DNA from: Candidatus Margulisiibacteriota bacterium
GTDB lineage: Bacteria; Margulisbacteria; WOR-1; JAHJIW01
Assembly: GCA_018823125.1 (NCBI GenBank)
Contig: JAHJIW010000005.1
Location: forward strand, 67,562 to 131,561
DNA: 64,000 nucleotides
Direction: 5' to 3'
Numbering within the stretch: the stretch's first letter is position 1; every line of letters starts with the position of its first letter. Below the pieces are notes generated by a model that saw only the letters and a list, made by a program, of their open reading frames with translations, was not told the DNA's origin and made no database searches. Position numbers and translations under genes: made by a program. Of this stretch, positions 10,734 through 56,919 are shown one piece after another.

Positions 10734-12098
10734 ATGTTCAAAAAAATCCTGATTGCTAACCGCGGCGAGATCGCCGTACGCATCATCCGGGCCTGTAATG
10801 AGTTAGGCATTAAAACCGTTGCCGTGTACTCAGCCCCCGACAAAGACTCACTTCACGTTAAACTGGCGGACGAAGCCTTTTGTATCGGTCCCGCATCCCC
10901 GGCCGAATCTTATCTGAACGTTCCCAATCTGATTAGTGTCGCCGAAGTTTCCGGTGCCGAAGCGGTTCATCCGGGATACGGCTTTTTGGCCGAAAACGCT
11001 AAGTTTGTGGAAATTTGTGAATCCCATAATATTGTATTTATTGGTCCCCCGATTTCGGCGATGGAAAAAATGGGGGATAAAGCGACGGCTCGCAAAACCG
11101 TGCAAAAAGCCGGAGTTCCGGTTGTTCCTGGATCGGATGGAACCATTTCCGATGAGGATGAGTTAAGGCAAGTAGTAGCTAAAATTGGTTACCCGGTAAT
11201 CATGAAAGCAACTGCGGGTGGTGGAGGAAAAGGGATGCGCGTTGCCAGAAACGATGATGAGCTGATCCGCTTCTTTAAAACTGCCCGGGTTGAAGCCGAA
11301 GCGGCGTTTGGCAACCCTGAAATGTATGTCGAAAAATTTATCGAAGAACCCCGCCACATCGAAGTTCAAATTTTAGCCGATAAACACGGCAATGTTATTC
11401 ATCTGGGTGAGAGGGATTGTTCGATTCAACGCCGCCACCAAAAATTAATCGAAGAAGCGCCTTCTCCAATTATTAATGAAAAACTGCGTAATAAAATAGG
11501 GGAGGCAGCGGTTAAAACGGCGAAAGCGGTTAAATATTATAGTGCCGGCACCATTGAGTTTTTATTTGATAACGGCAAATTTTATTTCATGGAAATGAAT
11601 ACCCGGATTCAGGTAGAACACCCGGTTACCGAAATGATCACTAATATTGATATTATTAAAGAACAAATTGCCATCGCGGCGGGCGAAAAGCTGCGTTTTA
11701 AACAAAAGGACGTTAAGTTTAGCGGGCATGCCATTGAGTGCCGTATCAATGCCGAAAACCCGGCAAAAAACTTTATGCCTTCACCGGGGGATATTCCGGT
11801 TTATCTGCCGCCGGGAGGTCCGGGGGTCAGGGTAGACAGCCATGCTTATCAGGGCTATACAATCCTTCCTTACTATGATTCTTTAGTTTCAAAGCTGATT
11901 GTCTGGGGAAATGACCGCACCGAGTGCATTCAGCGTATGCTGCGCGCATTAGATGAATATGTAATTGATGGAATCCATACTACGATTCCTTTCCACCAAA
12001 AAGTGTTAGAGCATGAAGCCTTTATTTCCGGAGATTTTAATACTAAGTTCATAGAAAAATACTTCAGTAATAATAAGGAAGCAGTTAAGCATGGGTAA
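10734..12098 (+). CDS. accC: Biotin carboxylase subunit of acetyl-CoA carboxylase
   Basis: 454 aa; [22 protein letters not shown]-terminus and ATP-grasp motifs. No accB seen adjacent. Confidence 0.9.
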
Positions 12099-12489
12099 AA
12101 GGTCAACGGCCCGCCGTCTCGCCATGCAAGCCCTCTTTCAATCCGATCTGAGTGGATATGATATAGATAAAACCTTAAAAGATACTTTTGATACCGGTGA
12201 ATTTATTGACGACACCAAGTCTTTTTCAACTGAACTGGCTAAAGGTACCTGGGACCACAAAGACGAAATTGATAAAACTATTTCTGCTCAAGCAGTAGAC
12301 TGGTCTCTTGAACGGATGGGTGTGGTGGATCGAAATATTCTACGTCTGGGAATTTTTGAGCTTAAGTATCAAAAAGGAACGCCTGCATCCGTGATTATTA
12401 ATGAAGCGGTTGAACTGGCTAAAAAATTCGGCTCCGATGACTCGGCTAAGTTTATTAACGGTATCCTCGGCGCATTAGCCAAAAAATAA
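12091..12489 (+). CDS. nusB: Transcription antitermination factor NusB
   Basis: 132 aa; [10 protein letters not shown] motif; overlaps the accC stop by 8 nt. Confidence 0.9.
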
Positions 12490-12571
12490 CCCTCAAAAAA
12501 ATACCTTCCAAAAAGTGAAATTTCCCCGTAAATCTTCCGATAATAAATTGGAATAATCTTCATAAAGCGAG

Positions 12572-13690
12572 ATGAAAATGCCGGGAAGAAGTGCAGTAAT
12601 TTATAAACGTTCTCAAGCCCCCCGAATAGATAGTCAGCAATTTTTGGCTAAAAGTCGAGCGATTCGTACAACCGAAAATAGGGGGGTATTGGCCACAAAG
12701 ATGGATACCGATAGTGTTGATCAACCATCCCCGATAATTGGACTAACCGCACCTGATGCCAGAACTTTCAGATCAGTTTTATTCAATTTACTTAGCAATC
12801 CTGCCATTCAAGTTAATCCTAAAGCACTTAGGTTAACTGCATTCGAAGGGAAGTTTGGCCCACAACTGGATGCGATCGCCGCCCATCAACCCAAAGATGC
12901 TACAGACATATTAGATTTAACACAAGTCGAGGGTTGGAGCGAAGCCCACAACTTATCTGGCGATAAAATCGGTTTTCATTTGGTAAGCGGCGGACTAATT
13001 CCGCAATCTCCGATAGATCTTAGCTTTGCCCGGGCCTGGGCCATGTTTAATTTTACCCAATCGATTACCTCTGCTCAAGCAAGAATTGAAGAAAGTGATA
13101 AATTTTTTGCGCAAATTGTTCGTGAAATTGATGCTTTTGATAAATTAAACGAAAACCCTCTCTTGGACGAGAGCGGTCTTCCGCGGTGCGCTGATTCTGA
13201 ACTTTTGAGAAGAGAAGATTTTCATTTAAGATGTTTTCATAATGCAGGGATTGTTACCATCAAGGTGTCACGGGGAGACTTGACCGACCCGTATTTTGCG
13301 GTTGCTGCCCGGGATACGTATACTTTTTATAAACTGTTATCCAGGGGCCTGGTAAATTCGTATTATGATGGTGAAATAGGAAGGTTTAACGGGGCTTTTG
13401 CACGTTTCTTTGATGGGATTGCCGCACAAGAACACGATCCTAACTTTTCTTTAGCCAGTATTCCTGATTTTCAATGTAGCGTGCCTTTGGGCAGCAACGG
13501 AATTGATGTTGGGATCAGGACCCTCCCTTTAGGTTTAGGAAGGTACCAAGATGAAATTTCGTTTGCAAAAGTTTGGTTTACTTTTGAAACCGGAGGAAGA
13601 AATACTTCGGGACGTCAATTAGCTCAATCAGTGGTTGACGACATCTCAATCCAGATGCATATCCATGCCTCGCAGCTGGATAGAGGATAA
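12572..13690 (+). CDS. Hypothetical protein (372 aa), no family recognised
   Basis: Long open frame with A/T-rich third positions like neighbouring genes; no deaminase (HAE/PCxxC) or other known motif found. Weak RBS, so the true start is uncertain. Confidence 0.5.
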   Translation: MKMPGRSAVIYKRSQAPRIDSQQFLAKSRAIRTTENRGVLATKMDTDSVDQPSPIIGLTAPDARTFRSVLFNLLSNPAIQVNPKALRLTAFEGKFGPQLDAIAAHQPKDATDILDLTQVEGWSEAHNLSGDKIGFHLVSGGLIPQSPIDLSFARAWAMFNFTQSITSAQARIEESDKFFAQIVREIDAFDKLNENPLLDESGLPRCADSELLRREDFHLRCFHNAGIVTIKVSRGDLTDPYFAVAARDTYTFYKLLSRGLVNSYYDGEIGRFNGAFARFFDGIAAQEHDPNFSLASIPDFQCSVPLGSNGIDVGIRTLPLGLGRYQDEISFAKVWFTFETGGRNTSGRQLAQSVVDDISIQMHIHASQLDRG

Positions 13691-13765
13691 ATGCTTACTC
13701 TTGTTTTTCCGCATATTTTCAAGTAAAATGAAGGTTCTAGTTTTTCAAATTTAGGTGGAGGATCT

Positions 13766-14431
13766 ATGTTTACCGGCATCGTCCAGGAACTAGGCAAAAT
13801 CAAAAACATAACCCAAAAAAAGAACCTCAAAAGATTCTTTATTAAGTCAAAATTGGTAAAAAAAGAGCTTAAATTAGGGTCTTCGGTAAGTATTAATGGT
13901 GTATGTTTGACCGTGGTTGATCTTAAATGGGACTATTTTGCAGTGGAAGCGGTGGCCGAAACCTTAAGAACCACTAATTTATCTTCACTTCAGGCTGGCG
14001 ATACGGTTAATCTTGAACCGGCTCTACTGGCGACCGGTCGATTAGACGGTCATTTTGTCACCGGGCATATTGATACCCAGGGCACTATCACGAAAAGACA
14101 AACCGTTGGTCAGCAGGAAGAAATTTATATCAAAATCCCTCTCGAATTTCAAGCCCTGATGGTAAGCAAAGGATCTATTTGTATCGATGGTATCAGCCTA
14201 ACCATTGCGGCGATCAGAGGGGATACCTTTAAAGTAGTGATCATTCCGCATACCCTGAAAAACACGACCCTAAATCAAAAACAAGTTAATCAACTGGTGA
14301 ATATCGAATTTGATATTTTAGGAAAATACACTTTGGCTAAAACCAATAATTTGCAATTTTCTGATCAAAGCCAGCTTAAGGCTAAGCTCATTGAATATTC
14401 AAAATTTGCGTTCCGGGCCAATTTGAATTAG
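13766..14431 (+). CDS. ribE: Riboflavin synthase (alpha subunit)
   Basis: [11 protein letters not shown]-terminus and internal lumazine-binding repeat; RBS GGTGGAGGA. Confidence 0.9.
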
Positions 14432-14439
14432 GTTTAGTT

Positions 14440-15642
14440 ATGAAATTTAGTACCATTGAACAAGCTATAACCGAAATTCGAAACGGCCGGATAGTGATCG
14501 TGGTTGACGATGAATCGCGTGAAAACGAGGGCGATCTGGTTTTGGCGGCAGAAAAAGTTACTCCCCAAGCCATCAACTTTATGATTACCCACGGTAAAGG
14601 TCTAGTTTGTGTTCCGATGCAGGGCGACCGCTTAGACCGGCTTGGCATCCAGCAGATGGTTTCTCAAAATACCGAAGCGATGCGTACCGCCTTTACGGTT
14701 TCCGTAGATGCCGCAAAAATGCACAAGGTTACCACCGGGATTTCTCCTGCGGATCGAGCTAAAACCATCGAGGTATTAATTAATCCGGCCAGTAAAAAAA
14801 GCGAATTAGTTCATCCCGGGCACATCTTTCCTTTGAGAGCATTTCCAGGCGGAGTGTTAAGGCGTGCCGGACATACCGAAGCCGCAGTCGATTTAGCTAC
14901 TTTGGCGGGCTTGTTTCCGGCCGGGGTCATCTGTGAAGTAATCAAAAAAGACGGCCACATGGCGCGCACGCCTGATCTTTTTAAGTTAGCTAAAAAACAT
15001 AACCTTAAAATTATCAGCATTGCAGATTTAATCCGCTACCGGATGCGCAAAGAGGGACTGGTTAAAAAAGTTACTAAGGCAAACTTGCCGACGCGTTTTG
15101 GGGATTTTACTTTAGTTACTTATAAAGATAAAATAAGCGGGGACATTCACCTGGCTTTAGTTAAGGGCAAAGTTTCCGGCAAAAAGAACGTACTGGTCAG
15201 AGTTCATTCCGAATGTTTAACCGGGGATGTTTTTGGATCGAAACGCTGCGATTGCGGAGATCAGCTGGAAATCGCGCTTAAAAGGATTAACCAGGAAAAG
15301 TCCGGAGTATTGTTATACATGCGGCAGGAAGGGCGCGGAATCGGCCTGGAAGCTAAATTAAAGGCTTATCAGCTGCAGGATCAGGGATTAGATACGGTAG
15401 AGGCCAATGAATCACTAGGTTTTGCTGCGGATCTTAGAGATTATGGAATCGGAGCACAAATTTTAGCGGATTTAGGATTATCAACCATAAAGCTGATGAC
15501 TAATAATCCTAAAAAAATAGTTGGCTTAGAAGGTTACGGATTAAAAATTGCAGAACGGGTTCCGGTTAAAATTGCGCCGAATCTGCATAACAAAAGGTAT
15601 TTGAAAACCAAACACGAAAAATTAGGGCATTGGTTGTCATAA
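14440..15642 (+). CDS. ribBA: Bifunctional 3,4-dihydroxy-2-butanone-4-phosphate synthase / GTP cyclohydrolase II
   Basis: 400 aa; DHBP synthase half ([11 protein letters not shown]) and GTP cyclohydrolase II half ([15 protein letters not shown]). Confidence 0.9.
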
Positions 15643-15658
15643 AAAGGAGGAATGAATC

Positions 15659-16123
15659 ATGGTAAAAATAATTGAAGGAAAGCTAAATGCAGAAGGGTTT
15701 AAGTTTGGGATCGTAGTTTCACGTTTTAATGAGTTGGTGTCTAAAGGATTGCTCGAAGGAGCGCTGGACTGCCTGAGGCGCCACGGAGCAAAAGATGCCG
15801 CCATCGATGTGGTATGGGCTCCGGGTTCTTTTGAAATGCCGATGGTGACCAAAATGATTTTGAAAAAGAATAAATATGATGCAGTCATCTGTGTAGGGGC
15901 TGTCATCCGGGGCAGTACTCCTCATTTTGATTTTGTGGCATCCGAAGCCGCCAAAGGCATTGCTAAAGTTTCTTTAGATTCTGCGGTACCAGTAATCTTT
16001 GGCGTACTCACCACCGATACACTTGAGCAAGCACTGGAAAGAGCCGGAGCAAAGCCGGGCAACAAAGGCTTCCAGGCCGCCATGTCTGCCATTGAGATGG
16101 CCAATTTAGTAGAAAGCATATAA
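15659..16123 (+). CDS. ribH: 6,7-dimethyl-8-ribityllumazine synthase
   Basis: 154 aa; [10 protein letters not shown]-terminal motif. Confidence 0.9.
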
Positions 16124-16143: not shown

Positions 16144-17244
16144 GTGGCACAAGTTAAAATTGAAGGTGTAACCAAAAGATTTGATGATGTAGTAGCAGTA
16201 AAAAATGTTGATTTACATATTAAGGACCAGGAGTTTTTAGTTTTAGTTGGCCCTTCGGGTTGCGGAAAAACCACGCTGTTAAGAATGATCGCTGGTTTAG
16301 AAGAAATTTCCGAAGGAACCGTCTCGATTGGAGATTTAGTGGTAAATGACGTTCCTCCTAAGGATCGTAATATTGCCATGGTTTTCCAAAACTACGCACT
16401 TTACCCGCACATGAAAGTTTACGAAAATATGGCCTTTGGCTTAAAATTGCGCGGGCATTCTAAAAAAGAAATTGACCGACGGGTAGCCGATGCCGCCGAA
16501 ATTTTGGATTTATCTAATCTTTTAAAACGGCTGCCGAAACAGCTTTCCGGCGGTCAGCGTCAAAGAGTAGCTTTGGGTAGAGCCATCGTTAGACATCCTC
16601 AAGTATTTTTGATGGACGAGCCGCTTTCAAACCTGGACGCTAAACTTCGAGTGCAAATGCGTGCCGAGCTTAAAAAAATCCACGACCGCTTAAAAACCAC
16701 CATTGTTTATGTAACTCACGATCAGGTTGAAGCGATGACCCTGGGAGAGCGCATCGCAGTTATTTTAAAGGGCGAACTGCAACAGGTTGATTCGCCGCTC
16801 AAGATTTATGAAAAACCGGATAATCGATTTGTCGCTGGCTTTATCGGCAGTCCTCCGATGAACTTTATTAAAGGGGGATTAGCGCAGGAAGGCGACCGCC
16901 TGGTTTTTAAATGCTCCAGTTTTAAATTTCCGATCCCAAAAGATTTTGAGGAATTTATCAGGGAATACGTTGGTAAAGATGTTACGCTGGGGATTAGACC
17001 CGAAGATATTATTGATGCTAAAAACCAGGATTGGCTGACCGAGAAAATGGCGGTATCCACTAAAGTTAACTTTAGAGAGCTGATGGGATCCGAAACCTAT
17101 CTTTATTTAAAAGCCGGTTCCGAAAGCTTAGTATCCAGGGTGGACGCAATGTGTGATACGGCCTCCGGTTCAGCTTTTAATGTAGTAATAAATTTAAGAA
17201 AGATTCATCTTTTTGACTGCGATACCCAAAAAGTAATCTTTTAG
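16144..17244 (+). CDS. ABC transporter ATP-binding protein, MalK/UgpC-type (sugar import ATPase)
   Basis: Walker A GPSGCGKTT, signature LSGGQRQR, Walker B LMDEPLSNLD and a C-terminal TOBE-like domain. GTG start with RBS AAAGGAGG. No permease genes adjacent. Confidence 0.85.
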   Translation: MAQVKIEGVTKRFDDVVAVKNVDLHIKDQEFLVLVGPSGCGKTTLLRMIAGLEEISEGTVSIGDLVVNDVPPKDRNIAMVFQNYALYPHMKVYENMAFGLKLRGHSKKEIDRRVADAAEILDLSNLLKRLPKQLSGGQRQRVALGRAIVRHPQVFLMDEPLSNLDAKLRVQMRAELKKIHDRLKTTIVYVTHDQVEAMTLGERIAVILKGELQQVDSPLKIYEKPDNRFVAGFIGSPPMNFIKGGLAQEGDRLVFKCSSFKFPIPKDFEEFIREYVGKDVTLGIRPEDIIDAKNQDWLTEKMAVSTKVNFRELMGSETYLYLKAGSESLVSRVDAMCDTASGSAFNVVINLRKIHLFDCDTQKVIF

Positions 17245-28565: not shown

Positions 28566-30596
28566 CTATCCGATAAAACGACTGATAAAAGCTGCGACGT
28601 ACTGATTTAAAAAGATAATCAAGGGCGCAAATACCAGAGATACTACCGTGATTAATTTTATTAAAATATTGATTGCCGGTCCAGCGGTATCTTTAAAAGG
28701 ATCGCCCACGGTGTCGCCAATGACGGTGGCGGCGTGTTCGGGACTCTTTTTACCGCCGAAATGACCTTCTTCAATATATTTCTTAGCGTTGTCCCAGGCG
28801 CCGCCGGCATTCGCCAGAAAAATGGCCATCGGTACACCGGTAATTAAAACGCCGGCTAAAAGACCCGCGAGAGCTTCCGGTCCAAATGCGATTCCCACCA
28901 AAAGAGGAATTAAAACCGCTGCCAGTCCCGGAGCAATCATTTCTTTTAATGCCGCTTGAGTCGTAATATCTACGCAGCGGGCATAATCGGCTTTGGCTTG
29001 ATTTTCCATTAAGCCTTTGATTTCTTTAAACTGGCGTCTTACTTCACCCACCACTAAAAATGCAGCTCTGCCTACCGCTTGCATAGTTTGGGTAGTGAAG
29101 AGAAACGGAATAACACCGCCTACAAATAATCCGGCAATAACGCGCGGCTGCATAATATCAATAACGGTCATACCGGCAACCTGAGTGTAAGCAGAGAATA
29201 ACGCTAACGCGGTCAATGCCGCTGATCCAATTGCAAATCCTTTGGCGATGGCGGCGGTGGTGTTTCCAGCCGCATCTAAAGAGTCGGTGATTTTTCTGAT
29301 TTCTGGCCCAAGATGGCTCATTTCAGCAATGCCGCCGGCGTTATCAGCGATCGGGCCGTAGGCGTCAACCGAAACCGTCATGCCGGCAATGGAAAGCATG
29401 CCGAGTGCCGCGAGGGCGACGCCAAACATACCTACGAAATGATAAGAAACTAAAATGGTAATACCGATAACCACTAACGGCAGAACCGTACTTTTCATTC
29501 CGGTTGCAATACCGGCAATAATGACGGTGGCCGGACCGGTTTGTGCCGATTCAGCAATTTTTACTACTTGTTTTCCAGAGGTAAAATACTCGGCTACGTA
29601 ACCCATTACTAATCCGGAAATCAGACCAAATAAAATGGCCCAGAAAGGATTGATGCTGCCGTACCAGAGTGTAGACAAAAGTAAGGCCGCAATAATAAAT
29701 AAAGTTGCGGAGGCAATCGTTCCGTTACGCAATGATTTTTGGGGGTTCATATTTTTTCCGGTTCTGACAAAGAAAGTTCCGATAATCGAAGCAACGATGC
29801 CGATCGCTGCCAAAAGCAAACAGAAAACCACTCCTTTTACTTTTGCGGCCGGAGTAGGGAGGGTGGCCACTGCAATTACGATTCCGGCAATAATGGCGCC
29901 TACGTAAGATTCATACAAATCGGCTCCCATCCCGGCTACGTCGCCTACGTTATCTCCAACTAAGTCGGCAATCACGGCAGGGTTGCGAGGATCATCCTCA
30001 GGAATTCCGGCTTCTACTTTACCTACTAAATCGGCACCGACGTCCGCCGCTTTGGTATAAATACCGCCACCGACACGGGCAAATAATGCTACCGATGAAG
30101 CTCCCATCGAAAATCCGGCGATTAAACTGGTCGCTAGTCCTAAACCAAAACTTTGATAGAAAATAAAATACAATAGTGAAAGCGCAAAAAGACCGATGGA
30201 AACTACGTACATTCCCATCACTGCGCCGCCGCTAAAAGCAATTTCTAAAGCATGATTAAAGCTTTTGGTAGCGCCGTGGGCGGTACGGGTATTGGCGCGG
30301 GTCGCAATTTTCATTCCTAAATATCCGGCCGAAAGCGAACAAACTGCTCCTACTAAATAGGCGACGGAGGTTTGCCAGTTTATGCCAAAAAATAAAACTA
30401 CGGTTAAAACCACCACAAAAATAGCGATGGCTTTATACTCGCGTTTTAAGAAGGCCATGGCTCCGGTGTGAATGGCTTCCGAAATTTCAACCATGGTTTC
30501 GTTTCCGGGATCCTCCTTCATTACTTTGGCGGCCAGGTACACGATGAAAATAATTCCGATAGCTCCGGTCAGTGTTGCGATCAAGATAAGATTCAT
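28566..30596 (-). CDS. hppA: Membrane-bound ion-translocating pyrophosphatase (H+/Na+-PPase)
   Basis: 676 aa; [17 protein letters not shown] and related V-PPase motifs. Confidence 0.9.
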
Positions 30597-30611
30597 TTAC
30601 TTTTCCCCTTT

Positions 30612-31220
30612 CTAATGACAGGCGCTGGTTGCGCTTTTATGGGTTAATAAATTCATTAACCCGATTAACAAACCTAAAACTAAAAATGCTCCGGGCGGCA
30701 AGACCATGATTAGGGCCGGATTATAGGATGGGCCAAGCAAACTAAATCCTAAAATGCTGCCGCTGCCTAAAATTTCGCGGACCGAGCTGACTAAAATTAA
30801 AGCTAAAAGAAAACCAAATCCCATGCCGAGTGCATCCATAATTGAATTGGACAGCGTGTTTTTAGATGCAAAAGCTTCGGCGCGGCCAAAAATAATGCAG
30901 TTAACCACAATTAATGGAATAAAGATTCCTAATGATTTATGCAGGGCCGGCGCAAAGGCGGCTAATAATAAATCCGCAATGGTGGTAAAAGACGCGATTA
31001 CAATAATATAAGTAGGAATGCGGATTTTTTTGGGAGTAATGTTTTTAATTAATGAAACGATGATGTTTGAACCTAATAAAACAAAAGTTGAAGCAACCGC
31101 CATGCCGATTCCATTGATGACGGTGGTGGTAACCGCCAGCGTGGGACACATGCCCAGGAGTAATCTGAAAACCGGGTTTTCCTTATAAATGCCTTTGGTA
31201 AATTCCGAAACTAAGCTCAT
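30612..31220 (-). CDS. RnfA/RnfE (NqrD/E) family membrane subunit, solitary
   Basis: 202 aa; LGMCPTLAVT and GIFIPLIVVNC motifs typical of RnfA/RnfE; no other rnf genes adjacent. Confidence 0.7.
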   Translation of the reverse strand: MSLVSEFTKGIYKENPVFRLLLGMCPTLAVTTTVINGIGMAVASTFVLLGSNIIVSLIKNITPKKIRIPTYIIVIASFTTIADLLLAAFAPALHKSLGIFIPLIVVNCIIFGRAEAFASKNTLSNSIMDALGMGFGFLLALILVSSVREILGSGSILGFSLLGPSYNPALIMVLPPGAFLVLGLLIGLMNLLTHKSATSACH

Positions 31221-31847
31221 TTAACTCTCAATCTGCTGGATTTGCCTTTTCTTGGGTGACAGTACTCCACCCGAAACTAAAAGTTTAACGGCATCTTCCA
31301 GCCGCATATCTAACATTATTACATCTTTTTTAGGGAAAGCTACTACATAACCGGTAGCCGGAGTAGGGCTGGTTGGAACAAAAACGGTATAAAGATCGGT
31401 TTTGGTTGCCTCCGCAATATCTTCCGGTCCGTTGCCGGTCACAAAGCCGATCGCCCAGACACCCTTGCGCGGATACTCAACTGCACAAACTTTGCGGAAA
31501 GCTTTAGTTTCTTTTTGTAAGAAAAGTAATTCATTGACCTGTTTTACTGACGAATAAATGGTGTTAACCACGGGCAGTTTGTATAATATTTTTTCGCCTT
31601 GACCTAATATTTGCTTGCCAAAAAGGTGAGTGGTTAAGAAACCAACCACAAAAAAGATAAGCAGGGTTAATAAAATACCCTGGCCGGGGATCGAAATTCC
31701 AAAAATATCGGTAATATAACTTCCTAAAAAGTTATCGGCAAAGGTAAAAATGAAAATTAAAAGCCAAAGGGTAACCAGCAGAGGTAAAATAGTGATCATG
31801 CCGTTAAATAAATATTTGGTTATTCTTCCCCAGATTTCCTTAGCCAT
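31221..31847 (-). CDS. DUF502-like membrane protein
   Basis: 208 aa, N-terminal TM helices, IYSSVKQVN motif; paralog of the next gene. Confidence 0.65.
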   Translation of the reverse strand: MAKEIWGRITKYLFNGMITILPLLVTLWLLIFIFTFADNFLGSYITDIFGISIPGQGILLTLLIFFVVGFLTTHLFGKQILGQGEKILYKLPVVNTIYSSVKQVNELLFLQKETKAFRKVCAVEYPRKGVWAIGFVTGNGPEDIAEATKTDLYTVFVPTSPTPATGYVVAFPKKDVIMLDMRLEDAVKLLVSGGVLSPKKRQIQQIES

Positions 31848-32454
31848 TTTTCCTTAGTTCCTCAACTTCGGCGGGTTTGAGCACCCCGCCCGAAATAACG
31901 TAACGGAAGGCTTCGTCCATTTTCATGTCTAAAAGTATAACATCTTTAGCTGGAACTACAATTAAAAAGCCGGTCGCCGGAGTAGGGGTATTAGCGATGA
32001 AAATATTGATTAATTTTTCTTTGGCTTTACTCTCAATTTCGCTGGCGGCGTCGGAAGTGATGAACCCGACGGTGTAGATCCCTTTGCGCGGGTATTCAAC
32101 CAGGCAGGCCCGCCTAAATTCGCCCGCGCCTTTGTGTAGAAACAAGACGTCGTTAACTTGTTTTACTGATGAATAAATACTTTTTACGATCGGAACGTGG
32201 CTTAAAAATAATTCTCCCCAGTTAAATAGTTTAGCCCCGATAATATAAGACGCAAAATATCCTACCAGAAAGATTAAAACAATGATCCCGATAATTCCGG
32301 CGCCGGGCATCGGTCGGCCGAAAATCATGTTAAAAAGCGGGCCCAAGATACCGTCGAGGAAGTTAAACATGAACATTAAAATCCAGATGGTGACCAAAAG
32401 CGGGAGGAGCGTAACCAATCCACGGAAGAAAACGGCGCTAATTCGTTGCCACAT
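31840..32454 (-). CDS. DUF502-like membrane protein (paralog)
   Basis: 204 aa, same architecture and IYSSVKQVN motif as the adjacent gene; overlaps it by 8 nt. Confidence 0.65.
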   Translation of the reverse strand: MWQRISAVFFRGLVTLLPLLVTIWILMFMFNFLDGILGPLFNMIFGRPMPGAGIIGIIVLIFLVGYFASYIIGAKLFNWGELFLSHVPIVKSIYSSVKQVNDVLFLHKGAGEFRRACLVEYPRKGIYTVGFITSDAASEIESKAKEKLINIFIANTPTPATGFLIVVPAKDVILLDMKMDEAFRYVISGGVLKPAEVEELRKNG

Positions 32455-49968: not shown

Positions 49969-51273
49969 TTAACTGCCTGCTTTTTTCAGCTTGAACTTGA
50001 AGGGCTCGGTAAATACCAGCGAGGGATCGCCGGTTGCCGGATCGATCGGCCCATCCTTAAGATAAAATTTTATTTCAATGCTGCGCTCGTTGATATCGTA
50101 GAGCATGGTCCAGAGCGTCCGGTGAGGCAAAGGACCGACTGACTGTTCAGCTATGTCAGTGGTATGGGCATAGACCAGGCTCATCGCCTCCTGGACATCA
50201 TCCGGTGAAAATTTCCCCTGATGGGCCTTGACATAATCAGTAAGCTTGGCGTAGCGGTAAAAAGTATTGTAAGTGCCTTTGGTTGTATAGGTCGGGAACT
50301 TGCTGGCGTCGGGATAGAGGTAAACCGCGTGATTGGTTATGACCTGCGGCCGGTCATTGTTATCGATGAAGTGATAACTGAAATCCTTGGGTGAAATATC
50401 GAAAATGAAAGACTTGCCGGAGCGGTCACAGATCAGAAGATGTCCGGGCATGAATCCCGCGACCAGCTTGTTATTGAGGATTGCCATTTTGGCCTCGTCC
50501 ACCGTCGCGCAGGTATCCAGGATCAATCTGTCCAGCTGCAGCATGTTCAGGCCGCCAACATCATCGCCCAGCGGATTGCTATCGGTACTGGGCGTGCCAA
50601 GATCATCTTCCAGCAGGGCCACGATCAGACCTTCGGAGTTCATCCCCCCCTGGAAGCCGTTTAATAAGTCCAGAGCGCCCACGACGATAGAGGAATACCC
50701 TTTATCCGGGTAGAGTTCTATGACAAAATCCCTGGAATAAAGATTATGCTCGCCCTCGACCCGCTTCATCCCCATCATCTCCCGCATGGTCGCGGTGTGA
50801 AAATCTATATTGTGGCCAACCAGATCGTGGCCATTGGCCGTGGAATCGGCCGGGAAAAATACCGCCGAGCAGCCGGGAGGAGTGATAAAGATATCGTAAT
50901 AAAGGCCGCTGGTGACATAAGTGTTATCTGTGGGAGACAGGCCGTATGATTTGGCCACGCCTTTCATCCGTTCAAGCAGGATCGGGTAGTTCTTTTCCAT
51001 GTACTGGCGGCGAGCCTCGGCGTAAAGCGGTCCGGCATAAGGGAGAAGCTTTTTGATGCCGAGCCACTCCTGGGCGATATCGCCCAAGGCTTTGCCGATC
51101 TCCTCATTGGTCCCGCGCAAAACGATGTGCCGGATCTCCAGATAAGTATCCGGCTCCTTTGCCAATATCACTTCATTGGTGACTATAACCGGGTTGGAGT
51201 TTTTGGCTAAGACGCCGGTCCCGAATCCGGCGATGAAACAAGAAACAAGTAAAAGACTAAGCAATTTTTTCAT
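49969..51273 (-). CDS. Peptidase C45-type Ntn-hydrolase (acyl-CoA:6-APA acyltransferase-like), secreted
   Basis: Signal peptide; putative autoprocessing site PPGCSAVFF. Start set to the internal ATG (MKKLLSL) preceded by AGAGGGGGAG. Confidence 0.7.
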   Translation of the reverse strand: MKKLLSLLLVSCFIAGFGTGVLAKNSNPVIVTNEVILAKEPDTYLEIRHIVLRGTNEEIGKALGDIAQEWLGIKKLLPYAGPLYAEARRQYMEKNYPILLERMKGVAKSYGLSPTDNTYVTSGLYYDIFITPPGCSAVFFPADSTANGHDLVGHNIDFHTATMREMMGMKRVEGEHNLYSRDFVIELYPDKGYSSIVVGALDLLNGFQGGMNSEGLIVALLEDDLGTPSTDSNPLGDDVGGLNMLQLDRLILDTCATVDEAKMAILNNKLVAGFMPGHLLICDRSGKSFIFDISPKDFSYHFIDNNDRPQVITNHAVYLYPDASKFPTYTTKGTYNTFYRYAKLTDYVKAHQGKFSPDDVQEAMSLVYAHTTDIAEQSVGPLPHRTLWTMLYDINERSIEIKFYLKDGPIDPATGDPSLVFTEPFKFKLKKAGS

Positions 51274-51310
51274 AATTTCTCCCCCTCTAAAAATATTATA
51301 TCCCTGCAGA

Positions 51311-52498
51311 TCATTTATTTTCAAATAACGGTTTTAGATCAAGCTCCGTCCATCCTGGATTGCCAAGCGCTTTGATCCACATCTTGAGCTCTGCCGGTAC
51401 AACCACTAACTGCTGAATTGCCAGGTTAGGCCGGGTGGCGCCACCCAGAGTGATCGGAGTATCGAGTACTTGCCTCATCACTTGCGCATTGAATTTGCCC
51501 TTATATTTTTCCCCCAGGGCTATCAAATTCTTATAGCGGGTGTAAGAGCGCGTTTCGCCGCCTTCGGTCGGCTCCATATTCCAGGCCGGATTCACAAAAT
51601 GATTGGTCTCGACCAGTAAGCCATCTTTGTCCGGCATTCTTTTCTTGGTATCATCAATCGAACATTCATAGGCGAAGGCGGTATTTTTATCTGCAACGGT
51701 AAAGATCTCAGCCAAACCGAGGCGGATCGAGTTGAGCGCCGCGTCCAGCTGCGTTATGTTCGAAGAATCAAATAAAAAGCTGGTGATGTAAAGTAGCGTC
51801 ATTTGCCGGTTGTCTACCGACGCGGTCCCGCACGATGCGGCCCCGTCGTTAAGCTCCATGAATAATCCATCTTTATTTAATCCGTGCATGGCTGTCACGC
51901 CGCCGGGATAGCCCACGACCGCGGTCGGCACTGCGTCTTCCGGCTGGTAAACGATCACGCTGAGATAGGGGTTAAATTTTTCATAGTATTCCGGATAATC
52001 AAAATTCCGGCCGAAAACCAGCGGCCCGCCGCCGGTATATTCTCCCCAGGCAACGATGGCTGAACAATGGACTGCAGTCTCGGAAATGATGGGCAGGACA
52101 TTGATCTGGTCGAGCGCCAATAATTTATCAAGCTCCAGGCCGGAAGTCTCGGCCATGCCGTAAATAATGTCCTGAAAACGTTTGGGATATACGGCAAAGA
52201 TCCCTCTGGTGGTATCATTAATATCTTCAAGCTTCAATCCTACTTCTTTGACGTAAGTTTCTTCAATTGCAACTTTATACATCTGTGCTAACTGTTCCTT
52301 AAGCAATTTTCCTTCCTGCCGTCCCATCTCCCGGTAAGTGCCGCGCAGCACGACCACGTTGAGATTGCCCGCTTTATATAATTTGCCGCCCTCGTACTCT
52401 GAAACCAATTTTAGCTCGACCGCCAAAGCCGGCAGTGAAATGGAAAACGAAAAGAAAAGGATCAAGATGAACAAAAGGGTAGCTTTTTTTAATAACAT
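51311..52498 (-). CDS. Peptidase C45-type Ntn-hydrolase paralog, secreted
   Basis: Signal peptide; HCSAIVAWGEY...GRNFDY motif aligning with the other two paralogs. Confidence 0.7.
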   Translation of the reverse strand: MLLKKATLLFILILFFSFSISLPALAVELKLVSEYEGGKLYKAGNLNVVVLRGTYREMGRQEGKLLKEQLAQMYKVAIEETYVKEVGLKLEDINDTTRGIFAVYPKRFQDIIYGMAETSGLELDKLLALDQINVLPIISETAVHCSAIVAWGEYTGGGPLVFGRNFDYPEYYEKFNPYLSVIVYQPEDAVPTAVVGYPGGVTAMHGLNKDGLFMELNDGAASCGTASVDNRQMTLLYITSFLFDSSNITQLDAALNSIRLGLAEIFTVADKNTAFAYECSIDDTKKRMPDKDGLLVETNHFVNPAWNMEPTEGGETRSYTRYKNLIALGEKYKGKFNAQVMRQVLDTPITLGGATRPNLAIQQLVVVPAELKMWIKALGNPGWTELDLKPLFENK

Positions 52499-52532
52499 TT
52501 GAAGTCTCCTTTTGGTGAATTATAACACTTTT

Positions 52533-53723
52533 TTATTCAAATAGCGGCTTCAGATCGATTTCGGTCCAGCCCTGATAATTGGTCAGATTTATCCACCACT
52601 TCAGTTCCGCGGGAACGGCTATCACCTGGTATAAGGTCTCTTCATCAGCGCTTATAGGCCGTGTCGCGCCGCCCTTGTCAATGGGCGTCTTCAACAGCTC
52701 TTTCATAGTATCGACATTAAGCCGGCCTTTGTACTTTTCTCCGAGGGCGTAGAGGTTTTCACGCCTCTGTGCGCTCTCTGCTAATGGACACGGCCATCGG
52801 CCCCAGGCCGGATCAACAAAATCGTTTGATGCCGCCAGCAGCCCGTCCGCTCGGCCGGCTACCCGCTGTAATCCGTAGGTGGCCCATTCATATGAATAAG
52901 CCGCATTCTTATCAGCTACCTGGATGATACAGGCGAAATCCGGCAGCGTGGTATTGAATCCGGTGTTGATGCCGTCCATGGTGGAGTTGTCAAGCAGGAA
53001 GAACAATAAATTGGCCATGTTCGGGACCCGGTCGTGCCGGGTGATGATCGCGGTCGTAATATCATCATCGAGTTCGAGGAATATCCCGCTTTTGTTCATG
53101 GCGTTCTGGGTGTAGGCTGCGCCCAGAAACGCAAAACTGGCAGTCGGGATTCCGCCGTCATCCGGATTATAAACAACGCATTCCATAAAAGGCAGGAACT
53201 CCTCAAAATAAGACATATAATCATAATTGCGGCCTACGACCAGCGGACGGCCGCCTGTATATTCGCCCCAGGCCGCGATCGCGGAACAACCCTGAGTATT
53301 CGTCGCTAACATACCGTACACGCCCCAGATCTCGGCGCAGGCATCAAGCGTGTTTAGCAGGATATGTTTTTCCAGAGAGATGCCGGACGTTTCCGCCATC
53401 CCGTATATCAGGTCCTGCGATCTCTTCGGCAGTCTCCTGAAATAGTCGCTGGCGATCTTATCAAGCGTTTCATAAGTCATGCCGTTCTTGCCGATGAAGC
53501 GTTCTTCAAAAGCTTTCTTATAGCACGGTTCCCAATCGTTTTTGAGAAGAGCGCCGTACTGCCGGCCCATCTGGCGGTAGCTCCCGTGAAGCTTAAGGAC
53601 GTTTATCTTCCCGGCCTTATACAGCTTTCCCCCTTCAAATTCAGAAACATATTTCAGCTCCTGAGCGTGAACCATCGAAACCAAAAAACACAAAGCCAGT
53701 ACGATTCCAAATAACTTTTTCAT
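52533..53723 (-). CDS. Peptidase C45-type Ntn-hydrolase paralog, secreted
   Basis: Signal peptide; GCSAIAAWGEY...GRNYDY motif; shares the SEFEGGKLYKAG N-terminal block with the 51311..52498 paralog. Confidence 0.7.
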   Translation of the reverse strand: MKKLFGIVLALCFLVSMVHAQELKYVSEFEGGKLYKAGKINVLKLHGSYRQMGRQYGALLKNDWEPCYKKAFEERFIGKNGMTYETLDKIASDYFRRLPKRSQDLIYGMAETSGISLEKHILLNTLDACAEIWGVYGMLATNTQGCSAIAAWGEYTGGRPLVVGRNYDYMSYFEEFLPFMECVVYNPDDGGIPTASFAFLGAAYTQNAMNKSGIFLELDDDITTAIITRHDRVPNMANLLFFLLDNSTMDGINTGFNTTLPDFACIIQVADKNAAYSYEWATYGLQRVAGRADGLLAASNDFVDPAWGRWPCPLAESAQRRENLYALGEKYKGRLNVDTMKELLKTPIDKGGATRPISADEETLYQVIAVPAELKWWINLTNYQGWTEIDLKPLFE

Positions 53724-53979
53724 TGTACCTTTTTACCTCGCCGTATATTTTATCGCACCTGGCGGCTGAAGTAAATGCTGCTGCATTGACACAAAAACCA
53801 TCCCGCGCTGCAAAACCAACCGGATTTGGGGGCAGGATTGCGGCTCGAATTATGAGCATAGCCCATAGTCCCATATACAAGAGCGTGGCGGCCGCACTAA
53901 AGCTTCAACCCGAAGATGATTTTCTTGAAAAGTGAAATTTATCCTTGCTTTTCTCGATAAAAAACCAAAGGACCCTTAA

Positions 53980-54657
53980 ATGGCAGTAAAACCAATAACC
54001 AGAAAACTATCGCAGGCGATACCTAAGGCACGTCCAATTTTAAAAAAATTGGGAAGAGCCAGTTTAAGTTCACTCCCTATACTTGGAACCTTTGCTACAG
54101 GAATTGCGGCCTATCATATTCACCCCGTATTTCAAGCCGAAGTTGATCGTGGCCGTGAATTTCTTTTAGCGCACAATCCGCATACCATCGAAGTGTTAGC
54201 TTCTGCAACTTTACTGGCAACTTCTGACATCATTGCCCAACGCTACGAAGGAAATAGTTTTAGTTATTCGAGGCTAGGGCGCATGTTTGTTTTTGGAGGG
54301 TTATCTGGTTTTTTTGCGCGACAGTTTTATGATTTACTTGATCAAATGTATCCTCCGGAGAATGGCCGACAAATTGTTAAAAGAGTGCTAATTGATCAAG
54401 GTAATTATGCTCCGCTTTTTTTGGCATCCTTTCATACCTTTAATCATGTCTTACAAGGAAAACCAATCACCGAATTAGCCGGCAGCATAAGAAAATTTGT
54501 TTTTAAATTTATACCTTTAAGCTGGAGCTTTTGGACCCCCGGTGCAACCTTAATTTATTGCTTGCCTGATGATTTGAAAGTATATACTTCAGCCATCCTT
54601 GGTTTAGTGTGGGGAATAGTATTATCCAGAATCGGGCATGACCTGCCGCGGGAATAA
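53980..54657 (+). CDS. Membrane protein resembling the Mpv17/PMP22 family
   Basis: 225 aa; segments TSDIIAQ, LIDQGNYAPLF and a C-terminal W-rich helix resemble Mpv17/PMP22 signatures (by recollection). Confidence 0.45.
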   Translation: MAVKPITRKLSQAIPKARPILKKLGRASLSSLPILGTFATGIAAYHIHPVFQAEVDRGREFLLAHNPHTIEVLASATLLATSDIIAQRYEGNSFSYSRLGRMFVFGGLSGFFARQFYDLLDQMYPPENGRQIVKRVLIDQGNYAPLFLASFHTFNHVLQGKPITELAGSIRKFVFKFIPLSWSFWTPGATLIYCLPDDLKVYTSAILGLVWGIVLSRIGHDLPRE

Positions 54658-54678
54658 CCGTATGCTATAATTCTCTCT

Positions 54679-55731
54679 GTGAAAAAGTTAATCGTACTGG
54701 CTCTCTGTTTAGTTTATCTTGCCCCAATTGCTCAAGCCGGCTCGATTGGCGGGATGCCTTACGTTATATACAACTCAACCTACGGTGCAGAATACGGCCT
54801 GATTGGCCGGCTGAGAAATTACCTGGGATATCACGAATCGCTGACCCTGTCGGCTACCTTGATTGAGAACGGAGGCAACATCAATAATTTTGTGCTTTCT
54901 TTTCCGGATCAGGATTACCGGCACGGTCAAGTTTTTGACCTGGCGGTTGACGTTGAAGGGGCCGTCGGCACCTACATTAACGAAAGATATTACGGATTGG
55001 GAAGCAATACTCCGGGAACCAATTACACGACCTTTAACAATGGGCACAGCCGCGTCAATATTATCCTGACGCGCGCCTACCAAAGCAATTTTTCTCTGGC
55101 GGTCGGTCTGCTGCTGGCGGGTAATTCCTTTTCCAATATTACGCAAGGGGTTAATCCCTTGACGCAAAATGCCCAGGACATCTGCTCAAAATATTACGCG
55201 GGAAGCTTGGGGCTAACCCTGGATAATCGGGATAACAGCATGGATCCGCACGGCGGCAATTATATTTTAACTGATTTTGATTACGGGATTACGGCCGCCG
55301 GGAGTCCGGTGAAATATGCAAAGCTGACGACCGATTTGCGGCGTTACGACACGCCGTTCCAAAAAGACCAGGTCCTGGCCAGCCGGGTGATGCTGGCCAC
55401 GATGACGGGAGATGTCATTCCGATATACGAATATGCTTCGCTAGGCGGGCGTGATACTTTACGGGGCTACGCCATGGACCGCTTCCGCGATAAAAGCGCC
55501 GCCCTGATCAATCTCGAATACCGTTTTCCGATTATCTGGGTTTTTAGCGCTGCGGTTTTTTACGAAGCCGGAAAAGTTGCTCCGCTGCTGACGGATATTG
55601 GATTTAATGATTGGGCCTCTGACTACGGGGCCGGACTGCGCATCAATTTTGGCAATGTAATCGTGCGTGGAGACTTTGGTCGCAGCAGTGAAGGAACCAA
55701 CGCCTACTTTTTCTACAATCAGGCGTTTTGA
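54679..55731 (+). CDS. Omp85 (BamA/TamA) family outer-membrane beta-barrel protein, barrel only
   Basis: Signal peptide ending IAQA; C-terminal barrel pattern with LGGRDTLRGY and terminal residues ...NQAF. GTG start. Confidence 0.6.
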   Translation: MKKLIVLALCLVYLAPIAQAGSIGGMPYVIYNSTYGAEYGLIGRLRNYLGYHESLTLSATLIENGGNINNFVLSFPDQDYRHGQVFDLAVDVEGAVGTYINERYYGLGSNTPGTNYTTFNNGHSRVNIILTRAYQSNFSLAVGLLLAGNSFSNITQGVNPLTQNAQDICSKYYAGSLGLTLDNRDNSMDPHGGNYILTDFDYGITAAGSPVKYAKLTTDLRRYDTPFQKDQVLASRVMLATMTGDVIPIYEYASLGGRDTLRGYAMDRFRDKSAALINLEYRFPIIWVFSAAVFYEAGKVAPLLTDIGFNDWASDYGAGLRINFGNVIVRGDFGRSSEGTNAYFFYNQAF

Positions 55732-56918
55732 TCGTCCCGCCGGATAACTAACGGCCCTTTGGTTGCTTTCATGATGTGGGACACCGGCAGATTATTTTGC
55801 CACAACTGAACCATGCCCCGCATGTATTTATTGATGTGACTGAAATATTTTTTATAGCCGGCGCAGAGGTAATTTAATCCCGGCTCATCCGATGGAGTTT
55901 TTAGGAAGCGCCGTTTGGGACATTCTCCGCGGCAGGCAAAAAGGTAAGTGCATTTTTTACAGTACTGCGGTAATTTGTCCGCTTTAGCCGCGCCAAAGTT
56001 TTTCTGTTTTGGCAGTTCAACCAGATCCTTAAGCTGATCTTTTAGGACATTGCCCAGCAGATATTCCGGATAAACAAAGTGGTCGCAGGAATAAACATCG
56101 CCGTTATGTTCGATCACCAGCGACCGGCCGCACTCAGGCGCAAAGAGGCAAAGCGGGGCAGGGTTGCCGGCCCAGTTATTTAAAGCCCATTCAAAGTTCA
56201 TGACGAAAATTTTGCCGACGTCGTGTCTGACCCATTGATCAAAGATTGCAATCAGGAAATCACCATATTTCTCCGGTTCAACTGACCAGGGTGTAATCAT
56301 GCCGTTTGGATCGCGCTCAACCACGGCGGTAAATTGAACAAACTCAACCCCTTCGCTTTTCAAGAACGCATAGACTTCCAAAGGTTTGTAAGCGGTTTCT
56401 TTGGCAACGCAGGCCAGCACGTTAAATTCGACACCGTGTTTTTTAAGCAGGCGCAATCCTTTGATAACTGCATCAAAGGTTCCGCGGCCCGAGCGATCTT
56501 TGCGGTAAATATCATGAATCTCTTTGGTCCCGTCCAGACTGATGCCGACAAAAAAATTATTCTTGCTTAGAAATTCTGCCCATGCATCATTGAGCAGTAC
56601 GCCGTTGGTTTGCAGTGAGTTTTTGATCTTGTTGCCTTGCTGGTATTTCTTTTGCAGTTTAAGGACCTGGCGGTAAAAAGCCAGGTCCGCAAGCAGGGGT
56701 TCTCCGCCGTGCCAGACAAATTCTACTTCTGCCTGCGGCTGGGATTCGAGGTACTGGCGGATAAAAGCTTCCAGCACCTCGCCGGTCATGCGGAAATTTT
56801 TGCCACTGGGGAAAAGTTTTTCTTTTTCCAGGTAAAAGCAGTAATCGCAGTTTAAATTGCAGGCCGGACCAACCGGCTTTGTAATCACATGAAAACTGGC
56901 AGGTAACTGATTAGCCAT
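55719..56918 (-). CDS. Anaerobic sulfatase-maturating enzyme (radical SAM/SPASM)
   Basis: CNLNCDYC radical SAM motif near the N-terminus and C-terminal Cys clusters (CKKCTYLFACRGECP). Confidence 0.85.
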   Translation of the reverse strand: MANQLPASFHVITKPVGPACNLNCDYCFYLEKEKLFPSGKNFRMTGEVLEAFIRQYLESQPQAEVEFVWHGGEPLLADLAFYRQVLKLQKKYQQGNKIKNSLQTNGVLLNDAWAEFLSKNNFFVGISLDGTKEIHDIYRKDRSGRGTFDAVIKGLRLLKKHGVEFNVLACVAKETAYKPLEVYAFLKSEGVEFVQFTAVVERDPNGMITPWSVEPEKYGDFLIAIFDQWVRHDVGKIFVMNFEWALNNWAGNPAPLCLFAPECGRSLVIEHNGDVYSCDHFVYPEYLLGNVLKDQLKDLVELPKQKNFGAAKADKLPQYCKKCTYLFACRGECPKRRFLKTPSDEPGLNYLCAGYKKYFSHINKYMRGMVQLWQNNLPVSHIMKATKGPLVIRRDDQNA

Positions 56919-56919
56919 T

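Follow-up and report, generated by a model that had tools for sequence, protein, structure and literature searches.

The window, the whole 64,000-nucleotide stretch of Candidatus Margulisiibacteriota DNA analysed here, carries the gene order accC-nusB-ORF372-ribE-ribBA-ribH, with every gene on the + strand (Table 1). accC and nusB overlap by 8 nt, and ribE is preceded by a Shine-Dalgarno sequence, GGAGG, at positions 13757-13761. The first-pass annotation of this DNA described ribE, ribBA and ribH as contiguous and co-oriented, and the coordinates, Pfam domains and NCBIfam scores all agree. The three genes are intact and each exceeds its equivalog cut-off, as expected of a riboflavin cluster: ribE scores 224.8 bits against NF006767 (cut-off 155), ribBA, a bifunctional fusion, 634.8 bits against NF006803 (cut-off 569) and ribH 183 bits against TIGR00114 (cut-off 84.6). 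The gap in front of ribE, previously given as 76 nt, is 75 nt on recounting. Nothing relevant was found in the literature on Margulisbacteria and riboflavin.

Table 1. Features of the accC-ribH region, in positions of the window.
Feature	Coordinates	Strand	Evidence or remarks
accC (biotin carboxylase)	10734..12098	+	Pfam domains; conserved left flank
nusB	12091..12489	+	PF01029, E 2e-37; left border of variable slot
ORF372 promoter-like element	12515..12544	+	GTGAAA, 18 nt, GATAAT; consensus scan
ORF372	12572..13690	+	372 codons; orphan-family protein; NCBI name: hypothetical protein
rib promoter-like element	13701..13729	+	TTGTTT (13701-13706), 17 nt, TAAAAT (13724-13729)
ribE (riboflavin synthase)	13766..14431	+	PF00677 + NF006767
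ribBA (DHBP synthase / GTP cyclohydrolase II)	14440..15642	+	PF00926 + PF00925; NF006803
ribH (lumazine synthase)	15659..16123	+	PF00885 + TIGR00114

The cluster had been reported to lack both ribD and an FMN riboswitch. RibD is the diaminohydroxyphosphoribosylaminopyrimidine deaminase / 5-amino-6-(5-phosphoribosylamino)uracil reductase. Its absence holds for the window plus 10 kb on either side, some 84 kb around the cluster in all. Here, tblastn with 46 diverse RibD proteins against the whole 64-kb window gave a best match of only E=0.04, and the RibD zinc motif (H/C-A-E ... P-C-x(5-14)-C) was matched in no window ORF of at least 80 aa by a regular expression that did recognise 46 RibD proteins of the loci used for comparison. 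In addition, the gene tables for the 10 kb past each window end contain no deaminase or RibD_C domain. The deaminase/reductase step would be expected to come from a ribD elsewhere in the genome. The statement about the riboswitch is upheld by covariance-model searches (RF00050), which found none at the gathering score (66.2 bits) across the whole window, none at E<=10 in positions 12000-14000 and none in the relatives L084-L086. As a positive control, the riboswitch was detected in 10 of 10 ribD-led clusters of other phyla, at 89-121 bits.

In place of a riboswitch, a promoter-like element starts 11 nt past the ORF372 stop codon. Its TTG and AGTA(A/G)AAT are invariant in seven sequences from five lineages, irrespective of which gene lies upstream, and this conservation suggests that it acts as the rib promoter. 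As proposed, a sigma-70-like promoter 37-65 nt ahead of the ribE start codon would drive ribE-ribBA-ribH. The leader would then be approximately 30 nt long, and an FMN aptamer would not fit within it. A second promoter-like element precedes ORF372. Its CGATAAT box and the bases downstream are invariant 5' of all three genes of the ORF372 family, consistent with a role as the ORF372 promoter, and ORF372 and the rib genes are probably transcribed separately.

The first-pass annotation placed a 372-aa ORF between nusB and ribE. The ORF is present, but its start is more likely the ATG at 12578, which aligns with the homologue starts and gives 370 aa; the NCBI form is 329 aa, beginning at Met44. 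By our own estimate, which is not a tool result, the chance of 372 stop-free codons at the local base composition is about 5e-10. The codon usage is host-like, as had been claimed (rank 19 of 58 window genes), with a GC content of 0.433 against 0.438 for the window. All six contigs of the same organism are 100% identical and offer no population SNPs for a selection test, and contigs of independent assemblies end at the ORF372/ribE junction. The length of the open frame and a full-length homologue in a related organism show ORF372 to be a real gene and not a chance ORF.

The encoded protein begins with a basic tail (aa 1-50, pI 10.5), and two homologous modules (approximately aa 51-200 and 201-372) make up the rest. 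The internal duplication has a z of 8.5, and 0 of 1000 shuffles reach its score. Nearly all residues shared by the two modules are hydrophobic, and no motif for binding zinc or nucleotides occurs among the conserved residues. There are only three cysteines (206, 221 and 302), and the protein has no hydrophobic segment. It is predicted to be soluble, with the N-terminal tail leading into two alpha+beta modules of about 150 residues each. The hydrophobic nature of the residues conserved between the modules suggests that ORF372 is not an enzyme but an accessory protein with a binding or structural role. AlphaFold2 gave a pLDDT of 33.7 from the single sequence and 49.5 (pTM 0.41) from three sequences. 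Foldseek searches reached a best E of 0.29 in the PDB and 0.06 in BFVD, which is noise level, so that an enzymatic role is possible on structural grounds. An immunity-like or surface-islet-associated role can be offered as speculation.

Across some 15 billion proteins searched, the ORF372 family comprises three proteins in two organisms. The relatives are one homologue (349 aa; 36% identity; E 6e-59 by local BLASTP) and one partial paralogue, both on a single related metagenome contig, L084. An exhaustive phmmer search of 1.84 billion representatives returned ORF372 itself and one homologue (E 1.5e-46), a k-mer plus HMMER search matched nothing but the query, and a profile of the family found nothing beyond its members. 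The JGI metagenome scan recovered the same organism only, and the IMG/VR scan recovered no relative. ORF372 has no match at E<=1 in Pfam or NCBIfam; neither it nor its homologues match Pfam, NCBIfam, PHROGs or PDB sequences, and none of the three family members matches the PADLOC anti-phage defence profiles. The homology searches that the first-pass annotation had called for thus reveal a family foreign to the libraries. They lend nothing to its suggestion of a ribD replacement, as no relation to RibD emerged, and its remark that the ORF lacks zinc-deaminase and reductase motifs was confirmed by regular expression, Pfam, NCBIfam and hhalign. The result documents a small orphan family built of two modules of about 150 aa each.

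The region between nusB and ribE varies among relatives. Between the window and L084 the flanking genes are 69-89% identical (accC 89%, nusB 81%, rib genes 69-83%), whereas ORF372 is only about 35% identical. In L084 the homologue lies among other orphan genes, accompanied by a tandem, truncated paralogue, and another gene stands between the homologue and ribE. In L085 and L086, where nusB is 76% identical, the order is accC-nusB-ribE-ribBA with a gap of only 61 nt, and in L089 it is Nramp-ribE-ribBA. Overall, five related lineages show five contexts upstream of ribE: ORF372, a 281-aa gene, a different gene followed by a terminator-like hairpin, nusB as the immediate neighbour, and Nramp as the immediate neighbour. 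As ribE directly follows nusB or the Nramp gene in the more distant relatives, ORF372 is absent from the slot there; the relatives compared are a handful of short contigs, and both insertion and loss would produce this pattern. The first-pass annotation held that absence of the ORF from this position in close relatives would refute its reading, and L085, L086 and L089 have no ORF372 in the slot. The comparisons document, for an uncultivated phylum, a hypervariable slot beside a conserved promoter-like element. ORF372 itself appears, from these comparisons, to be a fast-evolving orphan gene whose range is limited to one small lineage of Margulisbacteria.

It had been assumed that ribD normally leads the operon. 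This is valid only for operons controlled by an FMN riboswitch; among the loci compared, clusters with neither ribD nor the riboswitch were common. No ribD lay near 12 of the 55 ribE-ribBA clusters of other bacteria that were informative, and the ribD-led form occurs in 43 of 80 comparison loci (40 by automatic classification plus three, with ribD overlapping ribE, counted by hand). The FMN riboswitch was present in none of the 10 ribD-less clusters tested, versus all 10 of the ribD-led ones, which yields an empirical rule: in the sample surveyed, the riboswitch accompanied ribD-led operons only. In a scan of the genome collection, the ribBA relatives among the matches listed are from distant phyla and at most 64% identical. 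The cluster in the window is an ordinary one of the ribD-less, riboswitch-less type that is common in other bacteria.

The locus is probably best explained as two adjoining, independent units, with ORF372 having no part in riboflavin synthesis. The first would be ribE-ribBA-ribH, intact, ribD-less and riboswitch-less, with its own promoter. The second would be ORF372, with its own promoter-like box, sitting in the hypervariable slot that nusB and the rib promoter border. It is very unlikely that ORF372 makes riboflavin. The first-pass annotation had left open an unrelated insertion or a replacement of ribD; the slot and the divergence favour an unrelated gene, and the comparison with RibD profiles goes against a replacement. 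For riboflavin biology the consequences are small, as the cluster is of a common type and its neighbour is best read as unrelated. The clear negative is of use in halting the spread of a "missing ribD replaced" annotation. Counted against the two-unit reading is that ORF372 has about the length of RibD and occupies the place that ribD takes in ribD-led operons.

An unlikely alternative is the recent insertion, between nusB and ribE, of a mobile element or prophage remnant that carried ORF372 as cargo. The differing slot contents among relatives, the orphan status of ORF372 and the breaking of independently assembled contigs at its junction with ribE would all fit such an origin. However, the hallmarks of a mobile element or prophage are lacking: neither the locus nor the L084 islet contains an integrase, transposase or phage gene, direct or inverted repeats at the flanks do not rise above chance, and ORF372 has neither an IMG/VR relative nor a PHROG match. 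Its host-like composition and codon usage also argue against recent arrival, and long residence is favoured by the homologue that a relative, with a ribE at 69% identity, carries in the same slot.

It is highly improbable that ORF372 serves the rib operon as a protein regulator or other flavin-related accessory in lieu of the FMN riboswitch. The gene adjoins the rib promoter-like element, the riboswitch is absent, and the basic N-terminal tail might, for example, bind the adjacent promoter or leader. Yet the element is kept in relatives with no ORF372 in the slot, the protein has no match to a helix-turn-helix or to any other domain that binds DNA or RNA, and a dedicated regulator would not be expected to diverge so fast. 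Moreover, riboswitch-less, ribD-less clusters of other phyla manage without ORF372. The wider proposal that the family is a flavin-pathway component, whether RibD analogue or substitute for the riboswitch, gained in an ancestor shared by L084 and the window organism, we regard as more doubtful again.

There is even less to recommend the idea that ORF372 replaces RibD non-orthologously, with two modules that perform pyrimidine deamination and reduction. RibD has a similar length (~370 aa), two domains and the same position relative to ribE, and ORF372 lies immediately 5' of ribE in the same orientation; no ribD occurs within about 84 kb, and intact ribBA, ribE and ribH imply a need for the missing step. 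The resemblance ends there. The deaminase and reductase domains of RibD are unrelated to each other, whereas the modules of ORF372 are mutually homologous duplicates with no sequence, motif or profile similarity to RibD. ORF372 fails the zinc site and the domain profiles that define RibD (TIGR00326 / PF00383 + PF01872), hhalign of its family against a 14-sequence RibD alignment gave a probability of 0.3%, and its conserved residues, mainly hydrophobic, include no zinc-binding or nucleotide-binding motif. Relatives that retain the same rib cluster leave the slot without ORF372, its identity to the homologue (~35%) falls far below the 69-83% of the rib genes, and in L084 the homologue, accompanied by a truncated paralogue, is split from ribE by another gene. 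Finally, ribD-less clusters are common where nothing similar occupies this place.

The least credible reading, that ORF372 is a chance ORF or decayed remnant and codes for no protein, could appeal to its weak Shine-Dalgarno sequence, low AlphaFold2 confidence, lack of a database family and a start codon that differs between NCBI and other gene callers, but it is opposed by 372 open codons, a full-length homologue at 34-36% identity, the conserved two-module architecture and motifs, and the conserved upstream box.

With two independent units as the preferred reading, each can be set beside a known system. The Bacillus-type rib operon has the arrangement FMN riboswitch - ribD(G) - ribE - ribBA - ribH. 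The window cluster shares with it the order and orientation of ribE-ribBA-ribH and the bifunctional ribBA, and has a short promoter-proximal leader in place of ribD and the FMN riboswitch. Closer counterparts are the ribD-less clusters in MAGs labelled Nitrospirota, Bipolaricaulota, Thermotogae, Dehalococcoidaceae and Thermodesulfobacteriota, which contain the same genes and, like the window, have neither ribD nor the FMN element. In many ribD-less clusters nusB lies 3' of ribH, whereas in the window it is upstream and coupled to accC; the window also differs in the orphan gene placed between nusB and the rib promoter. For that gene, the nearest parallel is with the lineage-specific orphan genes of flexible islets. 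Mobility genes and boundary repeats were not detected here, but ORF372 resembles these orphans in its tiny range, fast divergence, tandem paralogues, varying neighbours and a putative promoter of its own.

The riboflavin genes ribE, ribBA and ribH are contiguous and co-oriented, as the first-pass annotation had described, and all three have Pfam and NCBIfam equivalog support (see the table). The absence of ribD and of an FMN riboswitch noted there was also borne out. A tblastn search of the whole 64 kb with 46 diverse queries for RibD, the deaminase/reductase of riboflavin synthesis, taken from the comparison loci, gave nothing better than E=0.04. The RibD zinc motif is present in no ORF of the window, no flavin-related Pfam domains occur among the other window genes, and the gene tables for 10 kb past either window end contain no deaminase or RibD_C domain, so that the span inspected around the cluster is ~84 kb. 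For the FMN riboswitch (RF00050), a tRNA was the sole match in the whole window at gathering score, and positions 12000-14000 produced only noise at E<=10. The gap ahead of ribE is short, as had been proposed, but measures 75 nt and not 76. As ribE, ribBA and ribH are intact and conserved, RibD activity must exist somewhere. Riboflavin genes are often dispersed and, on this general ground, by far the most likely source is a ribD unlinked to the cluster.

Features of the riboflavin cluster and its upstream region (window coordinates)
Feature	Position	Strand	Basis
accC	10734-12098	+	gene call
nusB	12091-12489	+	gene call
ORF372, 372 codons	12572-13690	+	gene call
ORF372 start by caller: JGI 372 aa; Logan/ENA 370 aa; NCBI (MBU0686465.1, hypothetical protein) 329 aa from Met44	12572-12703		
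rib promoter-like boxes	13701-13706 and 13724-13729	+	cross-lineage conservation
ribE Shine-Dalgarno, GGAGG	13757-13761	+	
ribE	13766-14431	+	Pfam match, NCBIfam equivalog cut-off passed
ribBA	14440-15642	+	Pfam match, NCBIfam equivalog cut-off passed
ribH	15659-16123	+	Pfam match, NCBIfam equivalog cut-off passed

Several neighbors of the cluster are arranged in ways worth recording. Here, nusB lies upstream of the rib genes, sharing 8 nt with the end of accC, whereas many of the comparison loci from other phyla have it directly after ribH. The gene preceding accC is not accB and instead encodes an Inhibitor_I42 (chagasin-like) protein. At the other end, a MalK/UgpC-type ABC ATPase gene with a GTG start (16144-17244) begins 20 nt past ribH; no permease or binding-protein gene adjoins it, and the next gene is gcvPB, with no adjacent gcvPA.

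The window ribE product is 100% identical to an NCBI protein from a Candidatus Margulisbacteria MAG, and the locus recurs as contig JAHIZP010000005.1 of GCA_018814585.1; contigs from the same organism are all identical. Judged by ribE identity, only a few related sequences exist (69%, 66%, 65%, 58% and 58%, then <=52%), and their contigs are short. In the nearest, L084 (ribE 69%), accC-nusB is followed by five genes without a Pfam match and then by ribE-ribBA. In L085 and L086 (58%), the order is accC-nusB-ribE-ribBA with a 61-nt gap and an empty slot, whereas in L089 (58%) an Nramp gene stands immediately upstream of ribE. L087 and L088 (65% to the window and 91% to L084) have a distinct upstream sequence that ends in a terminator-like hairpin. 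These differing contexts make the 5' flank of ribE a variable slot in the lineage. None of the related contigs (L084-L089) carries ribD, and the ribD-less cluster is therefore a shared state of the lineage.

The L084 slot is a 4.5-kb islet (L084:2628-7083) whose products are, in order, 78, 424, 264, 349 and 281 aa. The first is membrane-anchored and Thr/Ser-rich and the second has a signal-peptide-like N-terminus; with their N-terminal hydrophobic segments, these two orphans look secreted or membrane-anchored. The third and fourth are paralogues of the ORF372 family, and the last has a Cys...His...Asp transglutaminase-like core (a weak, below-threshold PF13471 match) and a C-terminal coiled coil. 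Separately, independent assemblies of the window organism break at the ORF372 3' end/rib promoter (window 13560-13700): ENA k141_1377522 and JGI Ga0180007_10000783 end at ~13700, ENA k141_506638 starts at 13560, giving an overlap of exactly 141 nt (=k), and JGI Ga0180007_10001801 starts at 13578. Shared breaks of this kind are the signature of an assembly-graph branch, and suggest either that strains with differing slots co-exist or that the segment is present twice.

ORF372 has no Pfam or NCBIfam match at E<=1 and, as first reported, lacks zinc-deaminase and reductase motifs and is host-like in codon usage; its composition is host-like too. A word-indexed search of 5.8 billion proteins returned only ORF372 itself. 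Exhaustive phmmer against 1.84 billion representatives added one protein, the 349-aa P0122 from the L084 slot (36% identity, E 1.5e-46), which aligns over its full length (34% identity, local E 6e-59); the adjoining 264-aa P0123 is a partial paralogue. A profile built from the three added no member from the protein database, JGI metagenomes, IMG/VR or PDB sequences, and neither PHROGs nor PADLOC gave a match. Neither an integrase nor a transposase was detected, nor were boundary repeats or viral relatives. ORF372 is a genuine gene of orphan status. Comparison of the window with L084 gives identities of 89% for accC, 81% for nusB, 83% for ribBA and 69% for ribE, and only ~35% for ORF372, which therefore evolves far faster than its neighbors.

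The likely start of ORF372 is the ATG at 12578 (370 aa), which rests on alignment of the upstream region and on N-terminal conservation in homologues, as the ~40 residues preceding the NCBI start are conserved among all three family proteins. The whole protein has a pI of 5.9 but its first 50 residues one of 10.5, and no membrane-spanning or signal-peptide hydrophobic segment is present (maximum KD19 0.81). The N- and C-terminal halves are homologous (Smith-Waterman score 66, shuffle mean 28.6, z=8.5, reached by 0/1000 shuffles), as they are within P0122 and P0123. Each ~150-aa module carries P-[IY]-x-[GA]-[LIV]-[TA]-A-x-[DE]-x-x-T-[FL]...L-L and [DE]-x-[SG]-F-A-x-x-W, and in AlphaFold2 models, which are poor (pLDDT 34 and 49.5), bbb-aa-bb-a is repeated per module; no fold search rose above noise. 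Nearly every residue that the modules have in common is hydrophobic, and the modules appear to lack a conserved set of catalytic-looking polar residues.

Upstream of ribE, TTGnnn, 17 nt and TA(A/G)AAT are common to 7 sequences from 5 lineages. The second box is embedded in an invariant AGTA(A/G)AAT, and the whole arrangement is kept whatever gene stands further upstream; in the window, the element begins 11 nt past the ORF372 stop codon. Transcription would start near 13736, leaving a leader of ~30 nt, in which an FMN aptamer would not fit. ORF372 is itself preceded by a GTGAAA-18-GATAAT match, which falls on a CGATAAT box kept without change ahead of all three members of the family. It thus appears that every family gene has a promoter of its own, separate from that of the rib operon.

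The first-pass annotation had left open whether ORF372 is an unrelated insertion or a ribD replacement, and the results favor the former, in a variable slot. The locus would then comprise an ordinary ribE-ribBA-ribH operon, ribD-less and riboswitch-less, and ORF372 would be an independent neighbor: a lineage-restricted, rapidly diverging orphan in a hypervariable slot. Replacement of RibD by ORF372 is disfavored, as the gene is absent from the slot in relatives that keep the same rib cluster (an outcome that the first-pass annotation had itself named as a refutation), its divergence is ~2x that of the rib genes, and the L084 homologue is separated from ribE and has further orphans alongside it, one of them a truncated paralogue. 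Furthermore, its modules are duplicates of each other and not two different catalytic domains, it has no deaminase or reductase signature, and when the family was compared by hhalign with an alignment of 14 RibD sequences the probability was 0.3%. Regulation of the rib genes by ORF372 is unlikely, since relatives without the gene conserve the rib promoter element just as well. Overall, it is highly improbable that the family acts in the flavin pathway, whether as an analogue or as a regulator. For the independent neighbor, we favor a binding or accessory role over an enzymatic one; more speculatively, it might serve an immunity-like function within a variable islet.

Elsewhere in the window, 49969-58557 stands out by a GC of 0.48-0.51 (window average 0.44) and by codon usage that is less host-like than anywhere else in the stretch, and may be horizontally acquired. 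Three genes of 451, 395 and 396 aa lie there in tandem on the - strand; the two scanned match an AAT/Ntn-hydrolase-like family, and the third shares their N-terminal motif. An Omp85-like gene is also present, as is a radical-SAM/SPASM maturase adjoining a sulfatase. At 28566-32454 (-), the gene for an H+-pyrophosphatase precedes that of a single Rnf/Nqr-type membrane subunit, with no other Rnf subunits adjacent, and two tandem DUF502 paralogues.

To place the cluster, RibBA was used as the query to retrieve 80 loci, among the matches listed, from a collection with one genome per species. In 43 of these, ribD is directly upstream of ribE-ribBA (40 classified automatically and 3 counted by hand, in which ribD overlaps ribE and which were first labelled as having ribD elsewhere in the locus). 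Twelve have ribE-ribBA without ribD within ~7 kb, in MAGs labelled Nitrospirota, Bipolaricaulota, Thermotogae, Dehalococcoidaceae and Thermodesulfobacteriota. In 19, ribBA lacks ribE directly upstream (in 4 of the 19, ribD and ribE both occur at another point of the locus), and the remaining 6 had too short an upstream sequence for classification. As a positive control, the FMN element was found just upstream of ribD in 10/10 ribD-led loci tested (89-121 bits), against 0/10 of the ribD-less ribE-ribBA clusters; within this sample, the riboswitch accompanies ribD-led operons. The pattern across L005-L083 suggests that the operon head acquires and loses riboswitch and ribD as a pair. A rib cluster without ribD and riboswitch is, accordingly, not very unusual, and the window cluster belongs to this other common class, the same as that of the ribD-less, riboswitch-less clusters of other phyla. 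The cluster is of a known kind, and ORF372 is a new orphan family.
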